This document shows positions 17,478 through 64,000 of a stretch of 64,000 nucleotides of DNA, in pieces. The notes under the pieces are model-generated. The model made no database searches. It was given only the letters and a program-made list of their open reading frames with translations, and was not told where the DNA came from. The first letter of the stretch is position 1, and every line of letters starts with the position of its first letter. The stretch is from Bacilli bacterium (GTDB lineage Bacteria; Bacillota_I; Bacilli_A; RF39; UBA660). A program made the translations under genes and the position numbers. The stretch is taken from assembly GCA_017887425.1 (NCBI GenBank), contig JAGHHZ010000024.1:49534-113533 (forward strand). Direction: 5' to 3'.

Positions 17478-17676
17478 TGGTATAATATAGATGTCTAGGG
17501 ATAGCGACAAGCTCATTTAGAAAAACCGACTAATTAACGAATATTGGGAATCTAATTCATCAACGGTGTTGAATGCTCAATTAATTTTGAGAATCCTAAA
17601 GTTGATGATGTGATGCCCACCTGGTAGAGACTAGGTTTTATCGTTAAGGGCCCGCATTCTTGGACTTTTTTTTTTG
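17478..17676 (+). ncRNA. Candidate small RNA or structured transcript (~180 nt) with its own extended -10 promoter and a terminal T-tract
   Basis: TGgTATAAT extended -10 at 17478..17486. The non-coding stretch has GC-richer islands (gatgcccacctggtagag, gggcccgc). It ends in a T10 run at 17666..17675. A separate TATAAT promoter for tkt follows. Confidence 0.35.
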
Positions 17677-20780: not shown

Positions 20781-22268
20781 GTGGAGTTAGTTTTACCTAA
20801 AAGTAATAATACTGCTGAAAATAAAAAATTATTTGAGCAACTTAATAGTGGTAATCTTTCAATACGTAATAAAATTATTGAAAAAAATTTAAGATTAGTT
20901 GAAATGACTATTCAAAAAAAATTACCAGATTTTTCTGATTTACCATATATGGATAAAGAAGATTTATTTGAAATTGGATGTATTGGATTAATCAAGGCTG
21001 TTGATAGTTACGATTTAGATAGAGGAAAAGCCTTTTCAGCTTATGCAGTTATTTGTATTAGAAACGAAATATTAATGTATTATCGAAAAAACAAAAAGTT
21101 AAGTTTAATTGATAGTTTAAATGAAAATGTTAGTGAAGAAGATGAACGAAGTAAAGTTGAACTTTTAGTATCTAATGAAGAAAGCATCGAAGATCAGTAT
21201 ATTCAAAAAGAAACTAGTATAGAGATGTTAGAACATTTATCTTGTCTAACAGAAATAGAAAAGAAAGCAGTTAAACTCTACTATGGTTTTGGAGAACGAC
21301 GATTTACTGACCGAGAAATTGCTCAAGAATTAGGATATTCACAATCTTATATAAGCAGAATATTAAAAAAAGCTCGACATAAATTAAAAGATTTGCTGGA
21401 AAATAAATCTTTTAATGAAATAGTTCAAGAGGAATATAGTTTTGAAGTTTCTGATGCATTCGCACTATTTAGTGAATATCCTCGAGCTAAAATTATTAGA
21501 ACAATTAAGAAGTTACCTAAGGCAAAAAGAAAATTGTTTTTAGATTGTTATCCAATTAATGGTAAATATGGATTAACATTTAAAGAAGTTTGCCAAAAAT
21601 ATAATTTATCTAGTAAAGTTTTATTAAGAAAATTAGATAAAATTAAAGAAGAAATTTTATTTTTAATTATACAAGATCAAAGAAAAACTAGACAAGTAGA
21701 TATTTTTAAACAACTTCCTGATTATCCAAAAGAAAAAGTACTTGAAGCAATTCATATGCTAGAAGAACCTAATCAAACTATTTTCACTCTACGTTATGGA
21801 ATTGATAGAAAAAATCAACTTAGTGTTGAAGAAATAGTTTCTAAACTAGAAGGAAAAGAATTAGATATTCCTTTAACACCTGAAAGTGTTATTAAAAATT
21901 TATTTGTATCTAGACAGACAATAAAAAGACTGGTTCAACAAGGAAACGGTATCAAAATAAAAACTAATTTTTTAAATTCTGAAGAGTTATTTTTTTCTAA
22001 TTTTCCTGGTTATTCTAAAGAACAAGTTTTATCACTATTTCCTAATTTATTAGAGCGAAGAAGAATAATAGTAGAATTGTGCTTTGGCTTAAATGGTAAT
22101 GAGACAAAAAGTATCAAAGAAATAGCTATAATGATGGGGTGCAGTCAAAAAGAAGTTAAACAAAGAGTAGAATATGTAATAAAAGTTTTGAATAAACAGT
22201 TAAAAGATCGGTATAAAGAGCCAGAAGATAGTAAAGTTTTGACTAAGAAAAAAGTTGAAAAAAGATAA
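20781..22268 (+). CDS. Sigma-70 family RNA polymerase sigma factor with three additional C-terminal region-4-like HTH modules (495 aa)
   Basis: Region 2 (LRLVEMTIQKK...EDLFEIGCIGLIKAVDSYDLDRGKAFSAYAVICIRNEI). Region 4 (LTEIEKKAVKLYYG...TDREIAQELGYSQSYISRILKKARHKL). Three further repeats share the region-4 pattern (LPKAKRKLFLDCYP...FKEVCQKYNLSSKVLLRKL; TIFTLRYGID...SVEEIVSKLEG; RRIIVELCFGLNG...IKEIAIMMGCSQKEVKQRVEYVIKVL). GTG start after AGGCAGGTGG. Confidence 0.7.
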   Translation: MELVLPKSNNTAENKKLFEQLNSGNLSIRNKIIEKNLRLVEMTIQKKLPDFSDLPYMDKEDLFEIGCIGLIKAVDSYDLDRGKAFSAYAVICIRNEILMYYRKNKKLSLIDSLNENVSEEDERSKVELLVSNEESIEDQYIQKETSIEMLEHLSCLTEIEKKAVKLYYGFGERRFTDREIAQELGYSQSYISRILKKARHKLKDLLENKSFNEIVQEEYSFEVSDAFALFSEYPRAKIIRTIKKLPKAKRKLFLDCYPINGKYGLTFKEVCQKYNLSSKVLLRKLDKIKEEILFLIIQDQRKTRQVDIFKQLPDYPKEKVLEAIHMLEEPNQTIFTLRYGIDRKNQLSVEEIVSKLEGKELDIPLTPESVIKNLFVSRQTIKRLVQQGNGIKIKTNFLNSEELFFSNFPGYSKEQVLSLFPNLLERRRIIVELCFGLNGNETKSIKEIAIMMGCSQKEVKQRVEYVIKVLNKQLKDRYKEPEDSKVLTKKKVEKR

Positions 22269-26357: not shown

Positions 26358-26548
26358 CTAAAGATAAATTAGAATTATCTTTTTTGATTTCAAAAAATAT
26401 TTCTTTTAAATTATTATTCATTATTCATCTCCAACTTTCTAAATATCTTTTATTATACAATTTTTATTACGAAAATAAAAGAAAAATTTATCTTTTCTAA
26501 TTAACAAAAATGTGTTATAATTTTAAACGGGTTGAAGGAGTGAATAAA

Positions 26549-27955
26549 ATGAAAAAAACTAAAATAATTTGTAGTATTGGACCTGCTAGTAGCAATCCTG
26601 ATATTATGTGTGAAATGGTAAAAAATGGAATGAACGTAGCTAGAATAAATTTCTCTCATGCAACTTTGGACGAAAGAAAAGAAGTTGTAAGTTCAGTAAA
26701 AAAAGTAAGAGAGATGACTGGTGAAAATGTCGCAATTTTATATGATACTAAAGGACCCGAATTTAGAAATGGTGTTTTAGAAAACGATCAAATAAATTTA
26801 GTTGAAGGAAAAACAATTAGAATTGTTAAAGAAAAAGTTTTAGGTAATGAAGAAAGATTTTCTGTTAACCATCCTAATGCTATTGACTCTATCAATATAG
26901 GTGATCGTATTCTATTAGAAAATGGATTAATGAGTATCGAAGTTATTTCTAAAGAAGAAGATGGTCTTACTTGCAAAATAATTGTTGGGGGAGTATTAGG
27001 TAACAAAAAAAGCTTAAGTGTTCCTGGTGTTCATTTAGACATGCCATTTGTTAGTGAAGAAGATAAAGCTGATATTATTTATGCTTGCGAACACGATGGT
27101 GATTTTTTAGCTTTATCATTTGTCTCAACGAAAGAAGACGTCTTACAAGTTAAAGAGATTTTAAAAGAACACAACCGTACTGATATGAAATTAATTGCTA
27201 AAATAGAAAGTACAACTGGAATTGAAAACTTAGATGAAATTGCAACTGTTGTCGATGGTATTATGGTAGCAAGAGGCGATTTAGGTGTCGAAGCGGCGAT
27301 GGAAGATTTACCAATCTTACAAACAAAAATAATTGAATGTTGCCGTAAACATGGTAGATTTTGTATTGTGGCCACTGAAATGTTAGAATCAATGAAAAAA
27401 AACAATCGTCCTACAAGGGCTGAAGTTTCCGATGTCGCTAATGCCGTTATTAACGGAACTGATGCTGTTATGTTATCTGGTGAAACAACAGTAGGAAAGT
27501 ATCCAGTGGAAACTGTAAAATGTATGGCTAATATTTGTGAAAATATTGAAAAACATTTAGATTATAAAATAAATAATGAATATATTAAAAAATCAATTGA
27601 TGGAGCTATTGCTTCTAATGTTGTCGAAACAGCTTCTTTATTAGATGCTAAATTAATTGTAGCTACTACTATGAGTGGTAAAACAGCCGCTAGAGTTAGT
27701 AATTTAAGACCAAAATGTTTAGTTTTGGCTACATGTCCAAATGAAAAAGTAGCAAGATCATTAGCTTTAAATTTTGCTGTTTATCCAGTTGTTACAAGTG
27801 TTTTTGATTCGATTGATAAAATAGTAGAGGATGCTAAAATTAAAGCTATTGATTTTGCTAATTTAAAAGAATCTGATATTATTTTAATAACTGGTGGTTT
27901 TTATAATGACCCTGAATTTAAAGGAACTAATTTTATGAAGATTGAAAGAATATAG
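26549..27955 (+). CDS. pyk: Pyruvate kinase (canonical paralog)
   Basis: All canonical motifs are intact (ARINFSHA, DTKGPEFR, AKIEST, MVARGDLGVE, ATEMLESM, MLSGETTVGKYP). The start is placed at the Met after GGAGTG. Confidence 0.92.
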   Translation: MKKTKIICSIGPASSNPDIMCEMVKNGMNVARINFSHATLDERKEVVSSVKKVREMTGENVAILYDTKGPEFRNGVLENDQINLVEGKTIRIVKEKVLGNEERFSVNHPNAIDSINIGDRILLENGLMSIEVISKEEDGLTCKIIVGGVLGNKKSLSVPGVHLDMPFVSEEDKADIIYACEHDGDFLALSFVSTKEDVLQVKEILKEHNRTDMKLIAKIESTTGIENLDEIATVVDGIMVARGDLGVEAAMEDLPILQTKIIECCRKHGRFCIVATEMLESMKKNNRPTRAEVSDVANAVINGTDAVMLSGETTVGKYPVETVKCMANICENIEKHLDYKINNEYIKKSIDGAIASNVVETASLLDAKLIVATTMSGKTAARVSNLRPKCLVLATCPNEKVARSLALNFAVYPVVTSVFDSIDKIVEDAKIKAIDFANLKESDIILITGGFYNDPEFKGTNFMKIERI

Positions 27956-27969: not shown

Positions 27970-28026
27970 CTTGACTAAAACGGCGATATATCTTATAATT
28001 AATATAAGAATAAAGGGATGATAACC

Positions 28027-29442
28027 ATGAACAAAACTAAAATAATTGCTACTATAGGACCAGCTACAGCTAACCGTGAAGCTTTGAAATCTTTGATTAT
28101 TAATGGTGTTGATGCTTTTAGAATTAACATGACTTATTCTAGTTTGAATTTTTGTGAACAAATTATCGATATGATAAACAGTTTAAATACAATGTTAAAA
28201 ACTTATGTTGCAGTTATTTTAGATGTCAAAGGACCAACTATTAAAGTGGGACGAATTTCAAATGGTAAAGCTTTTTTAAGACAAGATGACAAAATAAGAA
28301 TATTTATGGATCCGGTTCTAGGAGATTGCACAAAATTTAGTGTTGACTACCCTGATTTAGTTAACGATGCAATTTTAAATTCTATTATTGAGGTGGATAA
28401 TGGAAATGTTGAATTACAAGTCTTAGATAAAGGCGATGATTATTTATTGTGCAAAGTTTTAAAAGAGGGAACAATTGAAGATAATAAGACTGTTAATTTA
28501 CCCAATATTAAATTAAATCGAAAATTTTTAAGTGAGCAAGACAAAGAAGTAATTAGGTTCGCTAATCGAAAAAATGTTGACTTTTTAGCGCTTTCTTATG
28601 TATCTAGTTCTGATGATGTTTTAGAGGTAAATGATTTATTAATAAACTTAGGTAATGATCATTTGCAAATTATATCTAAAATCGAAAACAATTATGCTTT
28701 AGATGATATTGATAACATTATTAAAGTTAGCGATGGAATTATTATCGATCGAAAAGATTTAAGTGTGGAAGTACCTTTAGAAAAAATACCAGGCATTCAA
28801 AAAAAGATTATCTCTAAATGTCATGCTAAAGGTGCTATCAGTATTGTGGCCACTGACTTATTATCTGCAACACACACCAATAGTTATCCTACTAGAGCAG
28901 AAGTATCTGATATTGCCAATGCTGTTTTAGATGGTACTGATACAATTATGTTATCTGATGAGACAACAATTGGTACCAATCCAATTGAAACTTTAAAATT
29001 ACTAGAGAAAATTATTCACACAGCTGAAGAAGATATCGATTATGAATATATGTTAGAGCAGTCTATTAAAACAGAAAAAAGAGATGCTACGGGTTCTTTA
29101 GCTTATAGTGTAGCAGGGTGTGCTTTAAGGTTAAAGTGCAAAGCCATTTTTACGCCAACGATGAGTGGTTATACTGCTAAAAAAATCAGTCGTTTTAGAC
29201 CGCTTTGTCCAATTATCGCACCTAGTCCTAATATTGATACTACTAAATCTTTAGCTCTTAATTTTGGTGTATATCCAATTTTAATCGAAGATTTAAAAAG
29301 CTTAGATGCGATTATTGAAAAGAGTAAAAAAATAGCGCAAGATGTTTTGCTACTAAAAGAAAAAGATAATATTATTATTACTGGTGGCTATCCATTTAAA
29401 AAAATAAAAAGTACTAATTTTATGAAGATAGAAGAAATATAA
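28027..29442 (+). CDS. Pyruvate kinase-like paralog with substitutions at conserved substrate-binding positions
   Basis: Same fold and length as pyk. Motifs are degenerate (FRINMTYSS, DVKGPTIK, IIDRKDLSVE, ATDLLSAT, MLSDETTIG), while KIEN and PTRAEVSD are retained. Confidence 0.75.
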   Translation: MNKTKIIATIGPATANREALKSLIINGVDAFRINMTYSSLNFCEQIIDMINSLNTMLKTYVAVILDVKGPTIKVGRISNGKAFLRQDDKIRIFMDPVLGDCTKFSVDYPDLVNDAILNSIIEVDNGNVELQVLDKGDDYLLCKVLKEGTIEDNKTVNLPNIKLNRKFLSEQDKEVIRFANRKNVDFLALSYVSSSDDVLEVNDLLINLGNDHLQIISKIENNYALDDIDNIIKVSDGIIIDRKDLSVEVPLEKIPGIQKKIISKCHAKGAISIVATDLLSATHTNSYPTRAEVSDIANAVLDGTDTIMLSDETTIGTNPIETLKLLEKIIHTAEEDIDYEYMLEQSIKTEKRDATGSLAYSVAGCALRLKCKAIFTPTMSGYTAKKISRFRPLCPIIAPSPNIDTTKSLALNFGVYPILIEDLKSLDAIIEKSKKIAQDVLLLKEKDNIIITGGYPFKKIKSTNFMKIEEI

Positions 29443-49765: not shown

Positions 49766-50758
49766 TTGTTAATTTTAACTAAAGTAGCATTTGTCGTCAT
49801 GTTTAGTTTTATCATTTCTCTTATATTAGGATATATTTTAATACCAATTTTAAAAAAGAAAAAACTAGATCAAGTTTTAAATCGTTTTTTAGAAGAGAAA
49901 CACAAAAAGAAACATGGAACGCCGACAATGGGAGGAATTATTTTTATTGTTCCTTCTTTGATAATTGTTTTATTACTTTTATTATTTAATAAAATTGAAA
50001 TAAATTATAGTTTGTTAATAGTCTTATTTACTTTTATAAGTTATAGTTTGATTGGATTTATCGATGATTATTTAATTATTAAAAGACATAATAATAATGG
50101 TTTAAGTGAAAGTACTAAATTTGTTATGCAGTTGTTTGTTGCGGTTATATTTTTTTATTTATTTATGAAAGCTGGTAACGAACCATTACTTTGGATTCAC
50201 ACCTTAAATTTAAGATTAGATATTGGGTGGTTATATGGCTTATTTATTCTATTTGTTTTGGTAGCGGCAAGTAATGCTGTTAATTTAACCGATGGGTTAG
50301 ATGGTTTAGCAGGAGGTTTGTCTTTAATCGCCTTTTTAACTTTTGGAATAATAACTTATAATACTGGTTGGTTAGAAGGTTATGAAAGCGTTGCTTTATT
50401 TTGTTTTGCTTTAGTGGGAAGTATCTTAGGATTTTTAGTATTTAATGTTAATCCGGCTAAAATATTTATGGGCGATACCGGTTCACTTGCTTTAGGAGCA
50501 ACATTAGGAAGCATTGCTATTATAACAAGGCATGAGTTATTATTAGTTTTAATAGGAATAGTTTTTGTAATTGAAACACTAACTTGTATTATTCAAAGAA
50601 TATATTATAAATTTACTAAAAAAAGATTATTTTTAATGACACCAATTCATCATTCTTTTGAAAAAAGAGGTTGGCAAGAAGGAGATATTGTTAAATTGTT
50701 TTGGATTATTGGGTTAATTGCTTCTTTATTAGCGTTAACTTTTGGGGTAATAATATAG
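49766..50758 (+). CDS. mraY: Phospho-N-acetylmuramoyl-pentapeptide transferase
   Basis: TTG start. Motifs GFIDD, NAVNLTDGLDGLA, FMGDTGSL, HHHFE-like HHSFE. Confidence 0.9.
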   Translation: MLILTKVAFVVMFSFIISLILGYILIPILKKKKLDQVLNRFLEEKHKKKHGTPTMGGIIFIVPSLIIVLLLLLFNKIEINYSLLIVLFTFISYSLIGFIDDYLIIKRHNNNGLSESTKFVMQLFVAVIFFYLFMKAGNEPLLWIHTLNLRLDIGWLYGLFILFVLVAASNAVNLTDGLDGLAGGLSLIAFLTFGIITYNTGWLEGYESVALFCFALVGSILGFLVFNVNPAKIFMGDTGSLALGATLGSIAIITRHELLLVLIGIVFVIETLTCIIQRIYYKFTKKRLFLMTPIHHSFEKRGWQEGDIVKLFWIIGLIASLLALTFGVII

Positions 50759-55598: not shown

Positions 55599-55624
55599 AA
55601 ATATGGATTGCTCCATATTTTTTT
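55599..55624. terminator. Bidirectional terminator between gmk (+) and the collagen-like gene (-)
   Basis: AAATATGGA-ttgc-TCCATATTT hairpin with an A-run upstream and a T-run downstream. Confidence 0.6.
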
Positions 55625-56411
55625 AGTTAATTCTTGTTATAGAAACGCTGGCAGAGTATAGATTATTTGGTACTAATTCGAAATCATTATATGAGGTGTT
55701 AATGAATCTATAGCTTGCTCCAGGAAGTGCTTCAAATATAGCATTACCATTAATTGTACCAGTTTCACAACATGAAAGTTTATTGTGGGTTGAAGAGTGT
55801 GCGATTAAAATGTCTTCTGGCCAGAATTGGTGAAATTCTATTCCTAGCGGTTTTTCTTCGCAATTGAAGTTATCATTTTTATGACTTCTAACATTTACCC
55901 ACCAATGGACGATATAGATTCCAGCTTCTGGAATAGAAAAGTCTCCAGTTGCAGGATTATATGTGATTTTGTTGGAAATGTTAGTATTTTGGAATAAAAT
56001 AGGGTTTTGTGATTGAACTGTAGAATTAGATCTATCGTGAACCATTGCATAACTATCTAAATTAATTCCAGGTCCAGCAGGTCCAGTAGGTCCAGTTGCA
56101 CCAGTCGCACCACTAGGTCCAGTAGGTCCAGTAGCACCAGTCGCACCACTAGGTCCAGTAGGTCCAGTGGCACCAGTCGCACCGCTAGGTCCAGTAGGTC
56201 CAGTAGATCCAGTAGCACCAGTAGCACCGCTAGGTCCGGTAGGTCCAGTTGCGCCGGTAGCTCCTCTAGGCCCAGTAGGTCCAGTACATCCACATGGTCC
56301 GGTAGGTCCTTGTTTTTGACGGTCAACTAAACACTTTATAACTTCGCATAAAGGGTTATTTCTACATTCGTCTTTTCTTAAGAATTCTTCAATTTTGTCA
56401 TTCTCGTTCAT
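55623..56411 (-). CDS. BclA-like collagen-repeat protein: short N-terminal domain, about 28 G-X-Y triplets, and a C1q/TNF-like C-terminal domain
   Basis: [33 protein letters not shown]... G-X-Y repeats built from a [12 protein letters not shown] 12-aa unit. The roughly 140-aa C-terminal domain has the beta-rich character of the BclA globular domain. Strong RBS AAAGGAGG. The gene is convergent with gmk. Confidence 0.75.
56068..56310. repeat. GC-rich tandem 9-bp (GGTCCAGTA-type) and 36-bp repeats encoding the collagen G-X-T triplets
   Basis: A ggtccagtaggtccagtggcaccagtcgcaccgcta unit repeats more than 4 times with single-base variants. Local GC is far above the window average. Confidence 0.85.
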
Positions 56412-57510: not shown

Positions 57511-58032
57511 ATGGCAAGAGTTAAAGGTGGAACAATCAGTCGTGCAAGACATAAAAAAGTTTTAGATCAAGCCAAAGGATATTTTGGTAGTAAACATAGA
57601 CTTTACCGTACTGCAAATGAACAAGTAATGCATTCTGGTAAATATGCATTCCGTGATAGAAAACAAAAGAAAAGAGATTTCCGTAAATTATGGATTACAA
57701 GAATTAATGCAGCTTGTCGTCAAAATGATATTAGTTATTCAAAATTTATCAATGGTTTAAATAAAGCTGAAATTGATATCAACCGTAAAATGTTAAGCGA
57801 GATTGCTATTGATAATCCAAAAGCATTTACTGAATTAGTTAGTGTTGCTAAAGATGCTTTAGAAGGAAAAGTAACTAAAGCTGTTAAAGAAACTAAAACA
57901 GCTAAAACTGAAAAAACAAGTTCAGATTTAAGCAGTAAAACAGTTGCTGAATTAAAGGAAATAGCTAAAGAAAAGAATATCGAAGGATATTCAACAATGA
58001 AAAAAGCAGAATTATTAGAAGCTTTAAAATAA
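57511..58032 (+). CDS. rplT: 50S ribosomal protein L20 with a roughly 55-aa C-terminal extension carrying a Rho_N-like motif
   Basis: Residues 1 to about 118 are canonical L20 (MARVKGG...[11 protein letters not shown]). The extension is [53 protein letters not shown]. Confidence 0.85.
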
Positions 58033-58047
58033 GCTTCTTTTTTTTAC
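58018..58047 (+). terminator. Rho-independent terminator of the infC-rpmI-rplT operon
   Basis: GAAGCTT-taaaat-AAGCTTC hairpin followed by T10. It overlaps the rplT stop. Confidence 0.65.
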
Positions 58048-58050
58048 ATA

Positions 58051-58812
58051 TTGTATAATCATAAATATTATTATATAATTAATATGGTGGATAGTATGTG
58101 GAAAATTATAAAATGGCCATTAATTTATTTGGTAATTCAGTTTATATTAATATTTGCTTTAGCTTATTATTTTGTTAGTAATGGTAATAATATTGAAGGA
58201 TTTAATAATTTTTTAGTCGACAAACAAATATATATTGCGATTGCTTTAGGAATTATTTTTATCCCACTTTTAATTTATGGCTACCGTGACTTTAGGCAGG
58301 ATAGCAGAAAAATAAATGTTTTTGGTTTAATTTTATTAGGTATAATTATTAGTTTATTATATAATGTTTTTGCTTTTTATTTAAATGAATACTTTTTAAA
58401 AACTGATTTATATTCTAATCAAAATAATCTACTTACAACTTTAGTCATAACTGGATTAATTGGTCCTATAATCGAAGAATTGATGTTTAGAGGAATAATT
58501 TATAATGAATTAAAACTTAAAGTGTCTCCTATGAAAGCAATACTAATAACTACTTTATTTTTCGCAATAACGCATTTTAATGTCTTACAAATAATTTATA
58601 CTTTTGCAGTTGGCTTCTTATTTATTTTCTTTTATGAAAAATATAAAGACATCAAAGCTCCAATTATTTTACATATGACATTAAATATAACGACGACGTT
58701 ATTTTTACCATTATTGACAAAAAATATTTTTGCTGTTAATTATACTGTTTTTCTAATTAGTCTAGTTGGCTTATTTATTGCTTTTCAATATACGAAAATA
58801 TTTAAATCATGA
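58051..58812 (+). CDS. CPBP-family intramembrane glutamic endopeptidase (CAAX protease-like)
   Basis: Polytopic membrane protein with EELMFRG and FAITHF motifs. Confidence 0.7.
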   Translation: MYNHKYYYIINMVDSMWKIIKWPLIYLVIQFILIFALAYYFVSNGNNIEGFNNFLVDKQIYIAIALGIIFIPLLIYGYRDFRQDSRKINVFGLILLGIIISLLYNVFAFYLNEYFLKTDLYSNQNNLLTTLVITGLIGPIIEELMFRGIIYNELKLKVSPMKAILITTLFFAITHFNVLQIIYTFAVGFLFIFFYEKYKDIKAPIILHMTLNITTTLFLPLLTKNIFAVNYTVFLISLVGLFIAFQYTKIFKS

Positions 58813-58833: not shown

Positions 58834-59331
58834 ATGAAGAATTTATATATTGACTTTGACGGCGTAATAATGGATACCATCGGTGTTACTTATGATATGT
58901 TAGATAGATTAGAAGTTGACCGTAAAGACCCTGATAAAATGAAAGAGTTTTATTCTAATTTGAATTGGAAACAATTACTAACTTTAACGCCGATTATCAA
59001 TGATGGCTATAATTGTTTAAAAAAGATATTTGCTTCTAATAAGTTTAATGTAGCAATATTAACCCATGTTAATTCATTAGATGAAGCAGTTGCTAAAATA
59101 AACCATATTAGAAAATATTTTAAAGATGTAACAATAATTCCTGTTCCAAGGGAAATATCTAAAACTAAAATATGCTTAAGTAAAGATGCTATATTAATTG
59201 ATGATTATTCAGGTAACTTAAAAGAGTGGGAAAGTGAAGGAGGAATTGGCGTTCAATTTTCTCGTGATTTAGCTAAAGATAAAGGATTCCCAGTTATTGA
59301 TAGGTTAGATAAAATTATCGATATGTTTTAA
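58834..59331 (+). CDS. HAD-superfamily 5'(3')-deoxyribonucleotidase-like protein
   Basis: HAD motif I (LYIDFDGVIMDT) and the fold pattern of the NT5C family. 165 aa. Confidence 0.55.
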   Translation: MKNLYIDFDGVIMDTIGVTYDMLDRLEVDRKDPDKMKEFYSNLNWKQLLTLTPIINDGYNCLKKIFASNKFNVAILTHVNSLDEAVAKINHIRKYFKDVTIIPVPREISKTKICLSKDAILIDDYSGNLKEWESEGGIGVQFSRDLAKDKGFPVIDRLDKIIDMF

Positions 59332-59357
59332 TAATTTAAATAGAAAGAGGAAATATT

Positions 59358-60950
59358 ATGACTTTATTTATTGGTGCTTTGTTTTTTATGTTAGCATTTA
59401 CAATAGCCGATTTAAAAAAAGCTTTTCATATGCTTCAGCAAAATTGGTACAATGATGGAGATCGTTATTTAAAATGGATTAATAATAATAGTCGTTTTGT
59501 TTTTCTATGGTTTGATTATATTTATATATTTATATCTTTAATCGGATATTTTATCGATCCTAATATTTTAAGTATTATATTTATAATTTATTATTTTATA
59601 ATTACTTTTATGCTACTAGAAAGATATAAAAATGAGCAAGTAAAAAAACCATTAGTTTTTACTAGTCGTATTAAAAGAATGTGTGTAACAATAGCTATTT
59701 TATATTTAATTCCGGTAACAACTATTTTTCTAACTTTTGATGAAAATTTAATTTTTATTTATTACTTTATTATCGGCAGTTTAATTTATTTTAATTATTA
59801 TATTGTTTATTTGGCTAATATCATTAATAAACCAGTAGAAAAATTAGTTTATTTATATTATAAAAACAAAGCTAATAAAAAATTAAAAAGTTTAAATCAT
59901 ATGAAAGTTATTGGTGTTACTGGTAGTTATGGTAAAACTAGTACTAAAAATATCATTAGTGATATTTTAAATATTAAATATATTGCTTTTCCAACACCTC
60001 AAAACTTTAACACTAATTATGGTTTAATCAGAACAATTAATGAATATATTGATAAATATAACGATTATTTTATAGCTGAGCTAGGAGCTTTTAGAAGAGG
60101 TGATATCAAATCTAGAGCAAGTATTGTTAAACCTAAATATGGTGTTTTAACTAAAATAGGAACTGCGCATTTAGATACTTTTGGTTCGATAGAAAATACA
60201 ACTAAAGCTAAATTCGAATTAATTGAATCATTGCCTAAAGATGGAATTGCTTTTTTAAATATCGATGATGAATTACAAGTAAATTATCAATTAAAAAATA
60301 AAGTAAGAATAGTTTGGTACGGATTAAATGATGAAGCTGACGTATATGCTACAAATATCAAATATTCTAAAGATGGTATGAGTTTTAAAGTTCATTTTAA
60401 AAACGATAAAAACGCCTATGAATTTACGACTAAATTATTAGGTGAGGCTAACGTATACAATGTTTTAGCAGGAATAGCTGTTAGTAAAGAATTAGGCTTG
60501 AATATTGAAGAATTACAAAAAGGTGTTTCTCAAATCAGACCAATCGAACATCGATTGCAAATACGTAAATATGGTTTAATTACTTATATCGATGATGCTT
60601 ATAATTCTAATCCAGTTGGCTCAAAAATGGCTTTAGATGTTTTGAAACTAATGCCAGGTAAAAAAGTGGTTATCACACCAGGAATGATTGAGATGGGAAG
60701 CAAACAATATGAAGTTAATTATAACTTTGGTAGATTTATTGGTAGTAGTGTTGATTTAGCTATCTTAGTTGGAACTGAACAAACGAAACCAATTCAAGAG
60801 GGAATAAAATCTACTAAATTCAATTTAGAAAATTTAATTGTCTTAAACGATGTAAAAGAAGCAATAGCTATCGCTCAAACTTATTTTAAAAATCAAGAAA
60901 CCTATATATTATTAGAAAATGATTTGCCAGATGTCTTTAATGAGAAATAA
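59358..60950 (+). CDS. murF: UDP-N-acetylmuramoyl-tripeptide--D-alanyl-D-alanine ligase (MurF) fused to an N-terminal polytopic membrane domain
   Basis: Mur ligase P-loop GVTGSYGKTSTK. MurF-type motifs (NFNTNYG, IDDAYNSNP, VITPGMIEMGS). The first roughly 180 aa are hydrophobic with about 5 predicted TM helices, replacing the usual soluble domain 1. Confidence 0.75.
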   Translation: MTLFIGALFFMLAFTIADLKKAFHMLQQNWYNDGDRYLKWINNNSRFVFLWFDYIYIFISLIGYFIDPNILSIIFIIYYFIITFMLLERYKNEQVKKPLVFTSRIKRMCVTIAILYLIPVTTIFLTFDENLIFIYYFIIGSLIYFNYYIVYLANIINKPVEKLVYLYYKNKANKKLKSLNHMKVIGVTGSYGKTSTKNIISDILNIKYIAFPTPQNFNTNYGLIRTINEYIDKYNDYFIAELGAFRRGDIKSRASIVKPKYGVLTKIGTAHLDTFGSIENTTKAKFELIESLPKDGIAFLNIDDELQVNYQLKNKVRIVWYGLNDEADVYATNIKYSKDGMSFKVHFKNDKNAYEFTTKLLGEANVYNVLAGIAVSKELGLNIEELQKGVSQIRPIEHRLQIRKYGLITYIDDAYNSNPVGSKMALDVLKLMPGKKVVITPGMIEMGSKQYEVNYNFGRFIGSSVDLAILVGTEQTKPIQEGIKSTKFNLENLIVLNDVKEAIAIAQTYFKNQETYILLENDLPDVFNEK

Positions 60951-61026
60951 TAATTTCTCTTTTTTTGCGATTTGACAATTTTTTCATTTTAAAATATAAT
61001 AATAAACCGATAAAGGGGGAATTATT

Positions 61027-61680
61027 ATGAAAAGAGAGCTACGTGAATTAATTGTTTTGATATTTGAAGGGTATTTAGTAAGAAAAAATGAACATCGTTT
61101 ATATGATAGAGATAGTGCAATACCAGAACAAATTATATCAATGTATTATCAAGCAAATGAAGAACCACCTTTTAAAATTCTTTATAATAATTTTAAAAGA
61201 AAATACTTATATAATGAAAGTCGAATTGACGAAACACTTTCTGATGAAGAATTGGAAGGATTGGACCGTGTATATGATTATATAAGGGGGTATGATTTTA
61301 GTAAACAGAAATTTGATGTATTTGTCGAAGGATTGAAAATTCACGCATTATTATATTCTGCTTGTCCATATCCAGAATTTGGAGGACAATTAAGGGATAA
61401 CACAGCTGTTTTAAAAGATGAAATAGTTGAAGTACCACCTGCTAGTGAAGCTAAAAAATATTTTCAGTCATTTATTGGTTATAAATTACCTGAAGTAGAT
61501 TTTGCTGATCCTGCATCAATATTTTCTTATATTAATGCTTGTATTTATATAACAACCGAACTAATAAGAAATCAACCATTTACAGATGGTAATAAAAGAA
61601 CATTTAGAGCATTACTAAACTTAATGTTTAAACAACATAATTTGCCACCTGTCTATGTTAAGACTAAAGAAAGAGAATAG
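61027..61680 (+). pseudogene. Fic/Doc-family (Fido) protein gene interrupted by an in-frame amber codon; frame continues to 61842
   Basis: Doc-type motif QPFTDGNKRTFRALL (HxFxDGNKR-like). TAG at 61678..61680 is followed in the same frame by 53 sense codons (YKDALMKAMKKRDYASLNQFYYY...). These fit the conserved post-motif helix of Fic proteins. Confidence 0.5.
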
Positions 61681-61843: not shown

Positions 61844-61869
61844 AAATCTACTGCTTTAGTAGATTTTTT
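61844..61869. terminator. Bidirectional terminator between the Fic-like locus and murE
   Basis: AAATCTACT-gcttt-AGTAGATTT hairpin flanked by A/T runs. Confidence 0.55.
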
Positions 61870-63257
61870 AAGTGCTTTTTAACTTCGTCTAAATCACAAA
61901 ATTCGATAATTTTATCTTTTAATATTTGATAGTTTTCACTACCTTTACCAATAATTAAAACAATATCATTTTTATGAGCCATATTAATAGCTTTCTTAAT
62001 TGCTTCACTACGATCTAATACTATTTCATAATTTTTATAATCCTTGACATCACTAACTAAATCATTAGCTATATCAATAGGATTTTCTCCTCTTGGATCT
62101 TGACTTGTTACAATTGCATAATCACAGTTAGTAATTACATTATAGCCTTTACTAGGTCGTTTACTTCGATCACGTTCGCCTGGTTCAGAGAAAACAACTA
62201 TTAAACGATCATGTTCTAAACTGTTCATAAACTCTAATAATTTACTAATGCCATTAGGCGTATGAGCATAATCGACAATTACTTTAAAGTCTTGCCCTAA
62301 ATCGATATTTTCTAAACGTCCGCTAACTTTAATTTTATAAAGATTTTTAATTAAATCATTCATATTATATCCTAAATTTACTAAAGCAAGTAATGCGGCA
62401 CATAAATTATAAACATTAAACATAGCAATTAGAGGACTTTCAATTTCATATTCTTGATTTTGATAAATAATTTTAAATAATGTTTTATTTTCAAATAATC
62501 TAACATCTTTAAAATATAAGTCATTATCTTTATTTTTACCATAAGTATATATTTTTTTACAATGTTTACTTACTTCTAAATAATGTTCATCATCCTTGTT
62601 TAAAATACAAGGACCAATTGTATTTTCAAATAATTTACACTTACAATTGATATAGTTTTCTAATGTTTTATGAGTATTTAAGTGTTCTTTAGTAATGTTA
62701 GTTAAAATGCTACAATTAAATTTAATTCCATTAACTCGGTCATAGTGCAAAGCTTCACTTGATACTTCCATACTAACTGTTTTAATATTATTTTTAACCA
62801 TATCAGCAAATAAAGGAATTGTTTTATCTAAACTAGGTGTAGTGTTACTAGTTTTCTCTTTGTAATTATTATAATTAATACCATTAGTTCCAATATAGGC
62901 ACAATTATCAAGTAATTGATAAATAATTGTTGCGACAGTAGTTTTACCATCTGTTCCTGTTATACCAATCATATTTAACTTACGAGTAGGATAATCGTAG
63001 AATTTATTAATAATATCAACAAATGCTTGATTAGGATTGCCTACTTTAATAATCGGAACAGATTTTTTTCCAACATCATTTTTGACAATAATGGCAGCTG
63101 CTCCTTTATTAATCGCATCATCAATAAATAAGTGACGATCCATCGTTTTATTATCGATACAAATAAATAAATCACCTTTTTGAATATTAACAGAACTAGT
63201 CTTAATACCAGTTATTAAAGTATCATAAGGACAGTCAATTAATTCGTTTAATTTCAT
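61848..63257 (-). CDS. murE: UDP-N-acetylmuramoyl-L-alanyl-D-glutamate--diamino-acid ligase
   Basis: Mur ligase P-loop GITGTDGKTT and the MurE-specific domain arrangement. 469 aa. Confidence 0.85.
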   Translation of the reverse strand: MKLNELIDCPYDTLITGIKTSSVNIQKGDLFICIDNKTMDRHLFIDDAINKGAAAIIVKNDVGKKSVPIIKVGNPNQAFVDIINKFYDYPTRKLNMIGITGTDGKTTVATIIYQLLDNCAYIGTNGINYNNYKEKTSNTTPSLDKTIPLFADMVKNNIKTVSMEVSSEALHYDRVNGIKFNCSILTNITKEHLNTHKTLENYINCKCKLFENTIGPCILNKDDEHYLEVSKHCKKIYTYGKNKDNDLYFKDVRLFENKTLFKIIYQNQEYEIESPLIAMFNVYNLCAALLALVNLGYNMNDLIKNLYKIKVSGRLENIDLGQDFKVIVDYAHTPNGISKLLEFMNSLEHDRLIVVFSEPGERDRSKRPSKGYNVITNCDYAIVTSQDPRGENPIDIANDLVSDVKDYKNYEIVLDRSEAIKKAINMAHKNDIVLIIGKGSENYQILKDKIIEFCDLDEVKKHLKNLLKQ

Positions 63258-64000
63258 TTTCTCACCTTCTTAATTATAATTACAGCCACCAATCCGCCTA
63301 ACAAAATAATAATATAATTATAACTATTATTTTCGTTATTGATAATAGGTTCAGGTCTTGTTTTTTCTTCTTCATACTTATTAATTAAGCTATTAATATT
63401 ATCAACATTGCCATCAAAATTAATAAAATAGTCTTTAACCTCATTATTAATATTTTCATATTTGGTATCATTTTTATAAGTGTCATAATATTCTAGTAAA
63501 TTATTAACTTCTTCAGGTACTTCGTAAAGACTAGGGGCTATACTAGGAGTTTGATAATAATTAGTTAAATTCTCATAAGCACTAGCAATTTGGTAAATTA
63601 CTTTTTCGTTATTAGCTTGAGCCATTATTTCTAAACCATAAGGTAATCCATCGTTAAATCCCATAGGAATACTAATTGCTGGGAAACCAATTAAAGGAGC
63701 AGTACTAGAACTTGGTGTATAAATTTGACTATATTTAGCTTCAGCATTAGTATATAACTCTGTTTTTAAAGTAGGGTAGATAATAGCATCTATTTCATAT
63801 TCCTCAAATCTATTATTAGCTGATTTAATATTATTATTACGAATACTTAAATAATTTTGATAAGTGCTAGTTTCTCTATAATCATTATCACAATAATAAC
63901 CATTATAACCATTAATATATTGCGTATAACCGCCGTTTTTAATTAAGTCATCTAAACTTTTAATTTTGCTAGAAGTACCTTGAATATATTGATTAAAATT
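63254..64000 (-). CDS. Amidase-signature family protein (GatA-like), C-terminal part, with an unusual C-terminal extension ending in a TM anchor. The frame runs open to the window edge (5'-partial).
   Basis: The minus-strand frame is open from 64000. It contains the amidase C-terminal signature PLIGFPAISIPMGFNDGLPYGLEIMAQ, then about 100 extra residues ending in IIILLGGLVAVIIIKKVRK. It overlaps the murE start by 4 nt. Confidence 0.6.
   Translation of the reverse strand, partial: NFNQYIQGTSSKIKSLDDLIKNGGYTQYINGYNGYYCDNDYRETSTYQNYLSIRNNNIKSANNRFEEYEIDAIIYPTLKTELYTNAEAKYSQIYTPSSSTAPLIGFPAISIPMGFNDGLPYGLEIMAQANNEKVIYQIASAYENLTNYYQTPSIAPSLYEVPEEVNNLLEYYDTYKNDTKYENINNEVKDYFINFDGNVDNINSLINKYEEEKTRPEPIINNENNSYNYIIILLGGLVAVIIIKKVRK

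Follow-up and report, generated by a model that had tools for sequence, protein, structure and literature searches.

The window, a stretch of 64,000 nucleotides (nt) from contig JAGHHZ010000024.1 of a Bacilli bacterium (RF39 lineage), contains a gene whose product of 530 amino acids (aa) joins an N-terminal membrane domain (here N-domain) to the catalytic part of the Mur ligase MurF. Mur ligases are known from textbooks as soluble cytoplasmic enzymes of three domains, and they are established targets of antibiotics. We describe this membrane MurF, its family, its surroundings and the reaction that it probably carries out; its features are collected in Table 1. The region has a G+C content of ~25%, and the gene, which a sequence-only reading of this DNA had taken for one open reading frame (ORF), is indeed uninterrupted over its 530 codons.

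In the assembly collection, 108 indexed blocks contain the identical protein. It lies on at least 21 contigs that were assembled independently from different samples; these reach 225 kb in length and have the same gene order throughout. Full-length homologues (519–548 aa, 56–98% identity, 98–100% coverage) numbered more than 100 in a protein search. We fetched 84 family loci, and in 83 of them the N-domain and the MurF core share one ORF of 525–544 aa; the exception, on the chromosome of a metagenome-assembled genome (MAG; locus L066), has the gene broken into ORFs of 201 and 212 aa, a pattern typical of frameshift error. A hidden Markov model (HMM) of the N-domain gave 1044 matches at E ≤ 0.001 among 1.84 billion cluster representatives. 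Forty-five of the best 150 are longer than 185 aa; 37 of these run on into MurF catalytic sequence, and the other eight end in out-of-frame-looking tails and are apparent fragments or frameshifted calls. None of the best 150 of the 1044 matches showed the N-domain as a stand-alone gene or with another partner domain, and it appears from these sequences to exist only as part of membrane MurF.

These results bear on whether the gene is an artefact, in which a membrane-protein gene and a 5′-truncated murF were joined by sequencing or assembly error, a missed stop or a frameshift. The broken gene of L066 is a point in favour of that idea. Against it stand the continuous ORF of the window, the identical protein on many independent contigs, the single ORF in 83 of the 84 loci, the one helix that AlphaFold2 (AF2) places across the junction, and the split or short database entries, whose out-of-frame-looking tails are what frameshift errors give. 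No hidden stop or frameshift was found, and we rule out a false fusion of two genes with near certainty.

From the P-loop onward the protein is MurF-like, just as the sequence-only reading had it: murF is the best family, and MurF also provides the best PDB sequence and fold matches. The top NCBIfam model is TIGR01143 murF (224.4 bits, E 2e-66), which outranks murC, murD, murE, mpl and MurT; no non-MurF model scores above 108 bits. The best sequence matches in PDB are all MurF (4qdi, 1gg4, 4cvk, 3zl8 and 2am1; E 1e-35 to 2e-24), extend from aa ~181 to ~488, and come from A. baumannii, E. coli, P. aeruginosa, T. maritima and S. pneumoniae. When the whole AF2 model was searched with Foldseek, the ten best hits were MurF structures (E 6e-24 to 4e-18, target TM score 0.48–0.70), with the A. 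baumannii and T. maritima entries at 0.67–0.70. The core that is invariant in the family consists of the P-loop, E241 of an ELGA motif and H271 of a TAHL motif (both aligned to MurF), K285, R399 and the motif DDAYNSNP (aa 412–419), which aligns to DDTYNANP of 4qdi. K285 is aligned with the lysine that is carbamylated in MurD, MurE and MurF. By sequence, the catalytic part (aa ~181–511) is made of ordinary MurF domains.

Both ends of the protein diverge from the murF model, whose match starts at aa 176 and covers model positions 68–389 of 418. The match thus ends ~29 model positions early, leaving the canonical MurF C-terminus unmatched, and the family-specific invariant tail LLENDLPDxFNE lies outside it. 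This tail may co-evolve with the new N-domain, for example by docking onto its cytoplasmic loops.

The usual soluble N-terminal domain is replaced by ~155–180 aa with five transmembrane helices (TM1–TM5), as the sequence-only reading had proposed. Mur ligase domain 1 (PF01225) has no Pfam match in membrane MurF, although the neighbouring MurE does match, and the murF model is joined only at its position 68. Hydropathy, AF2 helices and charge bias, on which the topology is based, agree on the five helices. Kyte-Doolittle (KD) windows of 19 residues exceed 1.6 only within aa 1–150, where they fall into five segments. AF2, run on an alignment of 43 sequences, gave a mean predicted local distance difference test score (pLDDT) of 86.3 and a predicted template modelling score (pTM) of 0.71 for the whole protein, and 92.9 and 0.85 for the N-domain alone. 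In the model, one unbroken helix (146–178) carries on from TM5 and stops no more than four residues short of strand 183–188, the first of the ATP domain, with no flexible linker.

Lysine and arginine (K+R) are concentrated on one side of the membrane. Mean counts over the 43 homologues are 5.3 in loop 20–46, 7.5 in loop 89–107 and 6.7 in segment 155–180, versus 0.5 and 0.2 in the two short loops of the opposite side. Because of this clear positive-inside signature, an N-out/C-in topology of five helices is predicted, with the ligase in the cytoplasm. The alignments show 24 invariant residues in the domain, and ~20 of them fall within the three cytoplasmic segments. Loop 1 carries the near-invariant motif KKxxHMLQQNWYNDGNRYLKW (invariant K21, H24, Q27, Q28, N29, Y31, R36, W40 and N44), loop 3 the motif KKEQVKKPLxxTxRIKR (invariant E93, K96, L99, T102, R104 and R107), and the connecting helix invariant N157, P159, E161, K175 and L176; the remaining invariant positions are T111, Y116, Y135 and Y144. 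Under the predicted topology, the invariant polar and basic residues would be concentrated on the face of the N-domain toward the catalytic core. Overall, identity to the query is 44–79% in the N-domain versus 60–85% in the core.

We found no known family for the N-domain. Twenty members searched against Pfam at E ≤ 1 gave scattered single matches only, with nothing consistent, and Foldseek of the N-domain against PDB gave no fold match (best E 3.7, TM score below 0.25). The possibility that its hydrophobicity is a by-product of an AT-rich (25% GC) genome was ruled out by the conservation, with 44–98% identity and 24 invariant residues, by the positive-inside pattern and by the high AF2 confidence. 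The invariant polar and charged cytoplasmic residues, with the continuous helix into the core, point to a functional replacement of domain 1, more than a passive anchor.

Table 1. Membrane MurF and the related wall genes of the window (positions in the 64,000-nt stretch)
Feature	Position	Strand	Details and basis
Membrane-embedded MurF coding sequence	59358..60950	+	530 aa + stop, ATG start; ORF list, full-length homologues
Shine-Dalgarno GAGG, 7 nt 5′ of ATG	59347..59350	+	sequence; homologues begin at same Met
TM1, aa 2–19, outside to inside	59361..59414	+	KD 2.07; AF2 helix 2–28
Cytoplasmic loop 1 with amphipathic helix, aa 20–46	59415..59495	+	alignments; K+R 5.3; AF2 helix 30–43
TM2, aa 47–63	59496..59546	+	KD profile; AF2 helices 45–49, 52–62
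TM3, aa 70–88	59565..59621	+	KD 1.9; AF2 helix 68–92
Cytoplasmic loop 3, aa 89–107	59622..59678	+	alignments; mean K+R 7.5
TM4, aa 108–125	59679..59732	+	KD profile; AF2 helix 103–125
TM5, aa 131–154	59748..59819	+	KD profile; AF2 helices 129–144, 146–178
Basic connecting helix, aa 155–180, TM5 to ATP domain	59820..59897	+	AF2; mean K+R 6.7
P-loop GVTGSYGKTSTK, aa 186–197	59913..59948	+	T188–S195 and K197 invariant; aligns to MurF P-loop in 4qdi
Mur ligase central ATP-binding domain, aa 187–375	59916..60482	+	Pfam PF08245 (Mur_ligase_M), E 4e-44
Mur ligase C-terminal domain, aa 398–511	60549..60890	+	PF02875 (Mur_ligase_C), 33.9 bits vs 28.4 cut-off
Family-specific invariant C-terminal tail LLENDLPDxFNE, aa 518–529	60909..60944	+	alignments; outside TIGR01143 match
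murE, 469 aa, 0.9 kb 3′ of murF, convergent	61848..63257	-	NF001126, 442 bits, above cut-off
mraY, 330 aa, 8.6 kb 5′ of murF	49766..50758	+	TIGR00445, 331 bits; Pfam

The fusion, for which the sequence-only reading had proposed a survey of the lineage, is widely shared there. In a survey of one genome per GTDB species, with patterns taken from the N-domain only, 293 species representatives encode it. The 80 fetched loci that are listed with source labels are all MAGs or metagenomic scaffolds, labelled Bacilli, Tenericutes, Mollicutes, Mycoplasmatota, Acholeplasma sp. CAG:878 or Clostridium sp. CAG:524/CAG:1000; two carriers are complete chromosomes of ~1.5 Mb each. Judged by record names, this labelling is consistent with RF39, RFN20 and ML615J-28, uncultured gut orders with reduced genomes. 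In published genome surveys, most of these organisms are predicted to keep a thin peptidoglycan wall (PMC10868615; PMC7301438), and the peptidoglycan pathway is called complete in the RF39/RFN20 genomes examined (PMC7301438).

The family loci have a conserved hydrolase-murF-ddl unit. In 57 of the 84 loci the ligase gene is directly followed, on its own strand, by ddl, with a gap of -32 to +29 nt (a representative scores 296 bits with NF002528 vs a cut-off of 262). Directly 5′ of the ligase, on the same strand, lies a gene for an EstV-like alpha/beta-hydrolase of ~247 aa in 60 of the 84 (found among L005–L084), and the glutamate racemase gene murI is nearby in 20. Pairing of ddl with murF is usual in Bacilli (B. 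subtilis, S. aureus), and the membrane MurF gene occupies that position. Because ddl encodes the enzyme that makes D-Ala-D-Ala, which MurF adds to the cell-wall precursor, this tight coupling supports the MurF reaction, and it is the strongest contextual evidence that the membrane protein carries it out.

We consider it probable, on balance, that the working MurF of this lineage is an integral membrane protein whose membrane module holds the nucleotide-diphosphate end of UDP-N-acetylmuramoyl (UDP-MurNAc)-tripeptide. The ATP-binding and dipeptide-binding domains (aa ~181–511) would sit in the cytoplasm. The soluble domain 1, holder of the UDP/pyrophosphate end in Mur ligases, would have been swapped for the N-out/C-in bundle of five helices, which a rigid helix would join to the core. 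Three conserved basic cytoplasmic segments (HMLQQNWYNDGNRYLKW, KKEQVKKPLxxTxRIKR and NKPIEK) would lie against the core and, in place of domain 1, grip the nucleotide-diphosphate head of the substrate. Catalysis would then take place at the inner surface of the membrane, with UDP-MurNAc-pentapeptide released beside MraY. We infer that the protein is the sole MurF of its genome, that the loops bind the substrate and that the product is passed to MraY. The sequence-only reading had suggested that a membrane tether would place the last cytoplasmic step next to MraY; this is plausible, and probably incomplete, because the invariant residues of the cytoplasmic face and the continuous helix point to a domain-1 role as well.

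Several observations weigh against this proposal. At 224.4 bits the protein does not reach the curated murF cut-off (288.6 bits), since neither of its ends agrees with the model, and it is thus not assigned to the family automatically. A survey of Mur chimeras describes domain 1 as the binder of the UDP-MurNAc-peptide precursor (PMC10214165), and helical membrane loops would have to take over this task. The window's own clade has no adjacent ddl, with none found within the 64 kb; it has lost this adjacency. Because catalytic, structural and contextual evidence all indicate MurF but the model cut-off is not reached and domain 1 is absent, we would place the protein in a MurF subfamily of divergent structure rather than among the standard members.

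The membrane module could do less than we propose. The protein might be a housekeeping MurF whose five helices only anchor it, for localisation or for a complex with MraY/MurG, and have no part in substrate binding, the UDP precursor being recognised by the catalytic core with nothing in place of domain 1; this strikes us as unlikely. Precedents are natural fusions of Mur enzymes with partners in the membrane (MurD-FtsW, MraY-MurG) and the MurE-MurF chimera of B. pertussis, still active without the MurF N-terminal 'cap' (PMC10214165). Anchors usually evolve freely, however, and this domain has 24 invariant positions, most of them polar or charged and on the cytoplasmic face; a rigid helix connects it to the core, and one transmembrane helix would be enough for an anchor. 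The substrate could also be a lipid-linked one, so that D-Ala-D-Ala is added to undecaprenyl-PP-MurNAc(-GlcNAc)-tripeptide (lipid I/II tripeptide; PP, pyrophosphate; GlcNAc, N-acetylglucosamine) and MraY acts before MurF. MurT, which has no uridine-binding domain, does act on lipid II and lipid I and not on UDP-linked precursors (PMC6085368), domain 1 is wholly absent from membrane MurF, and conserved loops rich in arginine and lysine at the membrane surface would suit a pyrophosphate held at the bilayer. UDP also has a pyrophosphate, however, and the basic loops fit either substrate; MraY of these genomes would have to prefer the tripeptide, and the canonical reaction order is otherwise universal. 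We regard this order of reactions as quite unlikely. In a milder version, the five-helix module would be a new membrane-embedded domain for binding nucleotide-sugar or pyrophosphate that docks on MraY and channels the product.

The remaining alternative concerns the role of the protein rather than of its N-domain. A canonical MurF might be encoded elsewhere in the genome, and the membrane protein might be a MurF-derived ligase with another role, for example in attaching a different dipeptide or amino acid, in muropeptide salvage at the membrane, or in the modification of some other polymer of the envelope. The score below the murF cut-off and the family-specific C-terminal tail would agree with this, as would the duplication of other wall genes in the window clade (two murE, two mraY). 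No second MurF-like gene was found in the 64-kb window or within ±10 kb at any of the 84 loci, a search that did not take in whole genomes; its outcome speaks against the paralogue. Also against it are the tight ddl coupling in most lineages, the reduced genomes (~1.5 Mb in the two complete chromosomes), the invariance of the dipeptide-domain motifs, and the completeness of the peptidoglycan pathway in the RF39/RFN20 genomes surveyed (PMC7301438). We therefore give a diverged paralogue only a slight chance, and continue to favour a working MurF that holds its UDP-linked substrate with the membrane module.

Comparison with known systems sets the protein apart from each. Canonical MurF (TIGR01143; PDB 1GG4, 4QDI/4QF5, 4CVM, 3ZL8, 2AM1) shares the central and C-terminal domains at ~25–33% identity, together with the P-loop, the Mg/catalytic Glu and His residues, the Lys that lines up with the carbamylated one, a DDxYNANP-type motif and the ddl linkage. 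It differs in having a soluble domain 1 of ~80–100 aa, for which membrane MurF has the bundle of five helices, and in its last ~25 residues, which are replaced here by the invariant ENDLPDxFNE tail; the score below the family cut-off is a further difference. The poly-gamma-glutamate synthetase PgsB/CapB is a membrane-associated amide ligase with a Mur-ligase-type ATP-binding domain and a single N-terminal anchor. Membrane association and the type of ATP-binding domain are shared with membrane MurF, whereas the single anchor, substrate and partners of PgsB/CapB are different, and PgsB/CapB was not found among the NCBIfam matches of membrane MurF.

MurT, a subunit of lipid II isoglutaminyl synthase (PDB 6GS2, 6FQB), resembles membrane MurF in having the central and C-terminal Mur domains and no uridine-binding domain 1, and in acting at the membrane surface (PMC6085368). 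In sequence and fold searches it matches membrane MurF weakly (39 bits with the MurT model vs a cut-off of 800 bits). MurT is however soluble, has GatD as partner and a DUF1727-type C-domain, and amidates D-Glu, whereas the present protein is far closer to MurF and is itself membrane-integral; no GatD-like gene was found among the conserved neighbours of the membrane MurF loci. In Mur chimeras (MurE-MurF, MurD-FtsW, MraY-MurG, MurC-Ddl) a precursor enzyme is likewise fused to another module, sometimes a polytopic membrane protein, and such chimeras are thought to organise the pathway (PMC10214165). The chimeras add whole recognisable enzymes, whereas here a domain of the ligase is swapped for a membrane module of no known family. 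The survey of these chimeras screened only proteins longer than 600 aa (PMC10214165), and for this reason the 530-aa membrane MurF would have been invisible to it.

A full-text literature search, with targeted reading of the Mur-chimera survey and of RF39/RFN20 genome papers, found no description of a MurF with transmembrane helices or embedded in the membrane; the supplement of PMC10868615 has no murF/K01929 entry as text. Membrane MurF sequences are already public and automatically annotated as MurF. What is new is recognition of the architecture, apparently undescribed, and of its implications, not the sequence. In a widespread gut lineage of human and animal hosts, with 293 species representatives, the final precursor step appears to be catalysed by a MurF that is integral to the membrane. 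Were this the only MurF, domain 1 would be dispensable or replaceable by a membrane module, and the lineage would offer a natural, genetically fixed case of membrane-organised cytoplasmic steps of peptidoglycan synthesis, an organisation so far backed mainly by interaction studies and chimeras. The choice between UDP-linked and lipid-linked tripeptide as substrate becomes a testable question; were it the latter, peptidoglycan synthesis in this order of gut Bacilli would have its last peptide-building step on the membrane carrier. Because the score is below the NCBI curated murF cut-off, threshold-based annotation could miss membrane MurF, which might feed 'missing step' calls in peptidoglycan reconstructions of these uncultured orders.

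We examined the neighborhood of membrane MurF in the window. The gene is preceded on the same strand by genes for a CAAX/Rce1-like membrane protease (58051–58812, +) and an NT5C-like protein (58834–59331, +), both identified with Pfam. A terminator-like hairpin lies at 58017–58038, 3′ of rplT, and no further terminator-like site was found between it and murF; the protease, NT5C-like and murF genes probably share a transcription unit. The product of the convergent murE makes the substrate of MurF. The sequence-only reading had placed mraY nearby and not adjacent, which is correct (Table 1); mraY, whose product acts next in the pathway, is preceded by a penicillin-binding protein (PBP) gene and has ftsW further downstream, in a PBP-mraY-...-ftsW cluster 5.6–11.5 kb upstream of murF.

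Contigs that reach past the end of the window have there an amidase gene, a second murE paralogue and a second mraY, and no canonical murF. The Mur ligase of 438 aa beside the second mraY was considered as a second MurF and ruled out, being a MurE paralogue (NF001126, 476 bits). The window clade accordingly has two paralogues each of MurE and MraY: the MurE proteins, of 469 and 438 aa, both exceed the NF001126 cut-off, and the MraY proteins have 330 and 329 aa. The second pair, murE2-mraY2 (L001:15711–17027 and L001:17039–18028), is adjacent and lies beside the sporulation gene yabP; the two murE/mraY pairs may be vegetative and sporulation-specific sets. The amidase gene encodes an amidase-signature (GatA-like) protein of 581 aa with an N-terminal hydrophobic segment and a C-terminal transmembrane anchor; it lies partly in the window (63254–64000, -) and continues at L001:13899–15644. 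Its 3′ end and the start codon of murE overlap by 4 nt, so that the two are probably co-translated, which would couple an extracytoplasmic amidase to murE.

A Fic-domain gene lies directly 3′ of murF (61027–61680, +; ~11671–12494 in L001–L004), with a perfect-consensus sigma-70 promoter ahead of it at 60972–61000. In near-identical contigs it is intact (271 aa) or variously split (217+48, 59+196 or 88+169 aa), which suggests ongoing decay or phase-variable frameshifting. Upstream, the L20 gene rplT (57511–58032, +) encodes a C-terminal extension of ~55 aa that matches a Rho_N/SAP-like domain (PF00453 + PF07498), an unusual addition to L20 that is kept in near-identical contigs. A gene for a collagen-repeat (PF01391) protein (55623–56411, -), of 247–262 aa among the contigs, forms a local G+C peak of 0.43 vs a background of ~0.26; its product could be an exosporium or surface-fibre protein. 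Elsewhere in the window are tandem pyruvate kinase genes (26510–27955 and 28018–29442, +), a gene for a sigma-70-family protein of 495 aa (20781–22268, +) with region-4 matches at both aa 153–203 and aa 414–463, and a 6S RNA (17489–17670, +; 72 bits).

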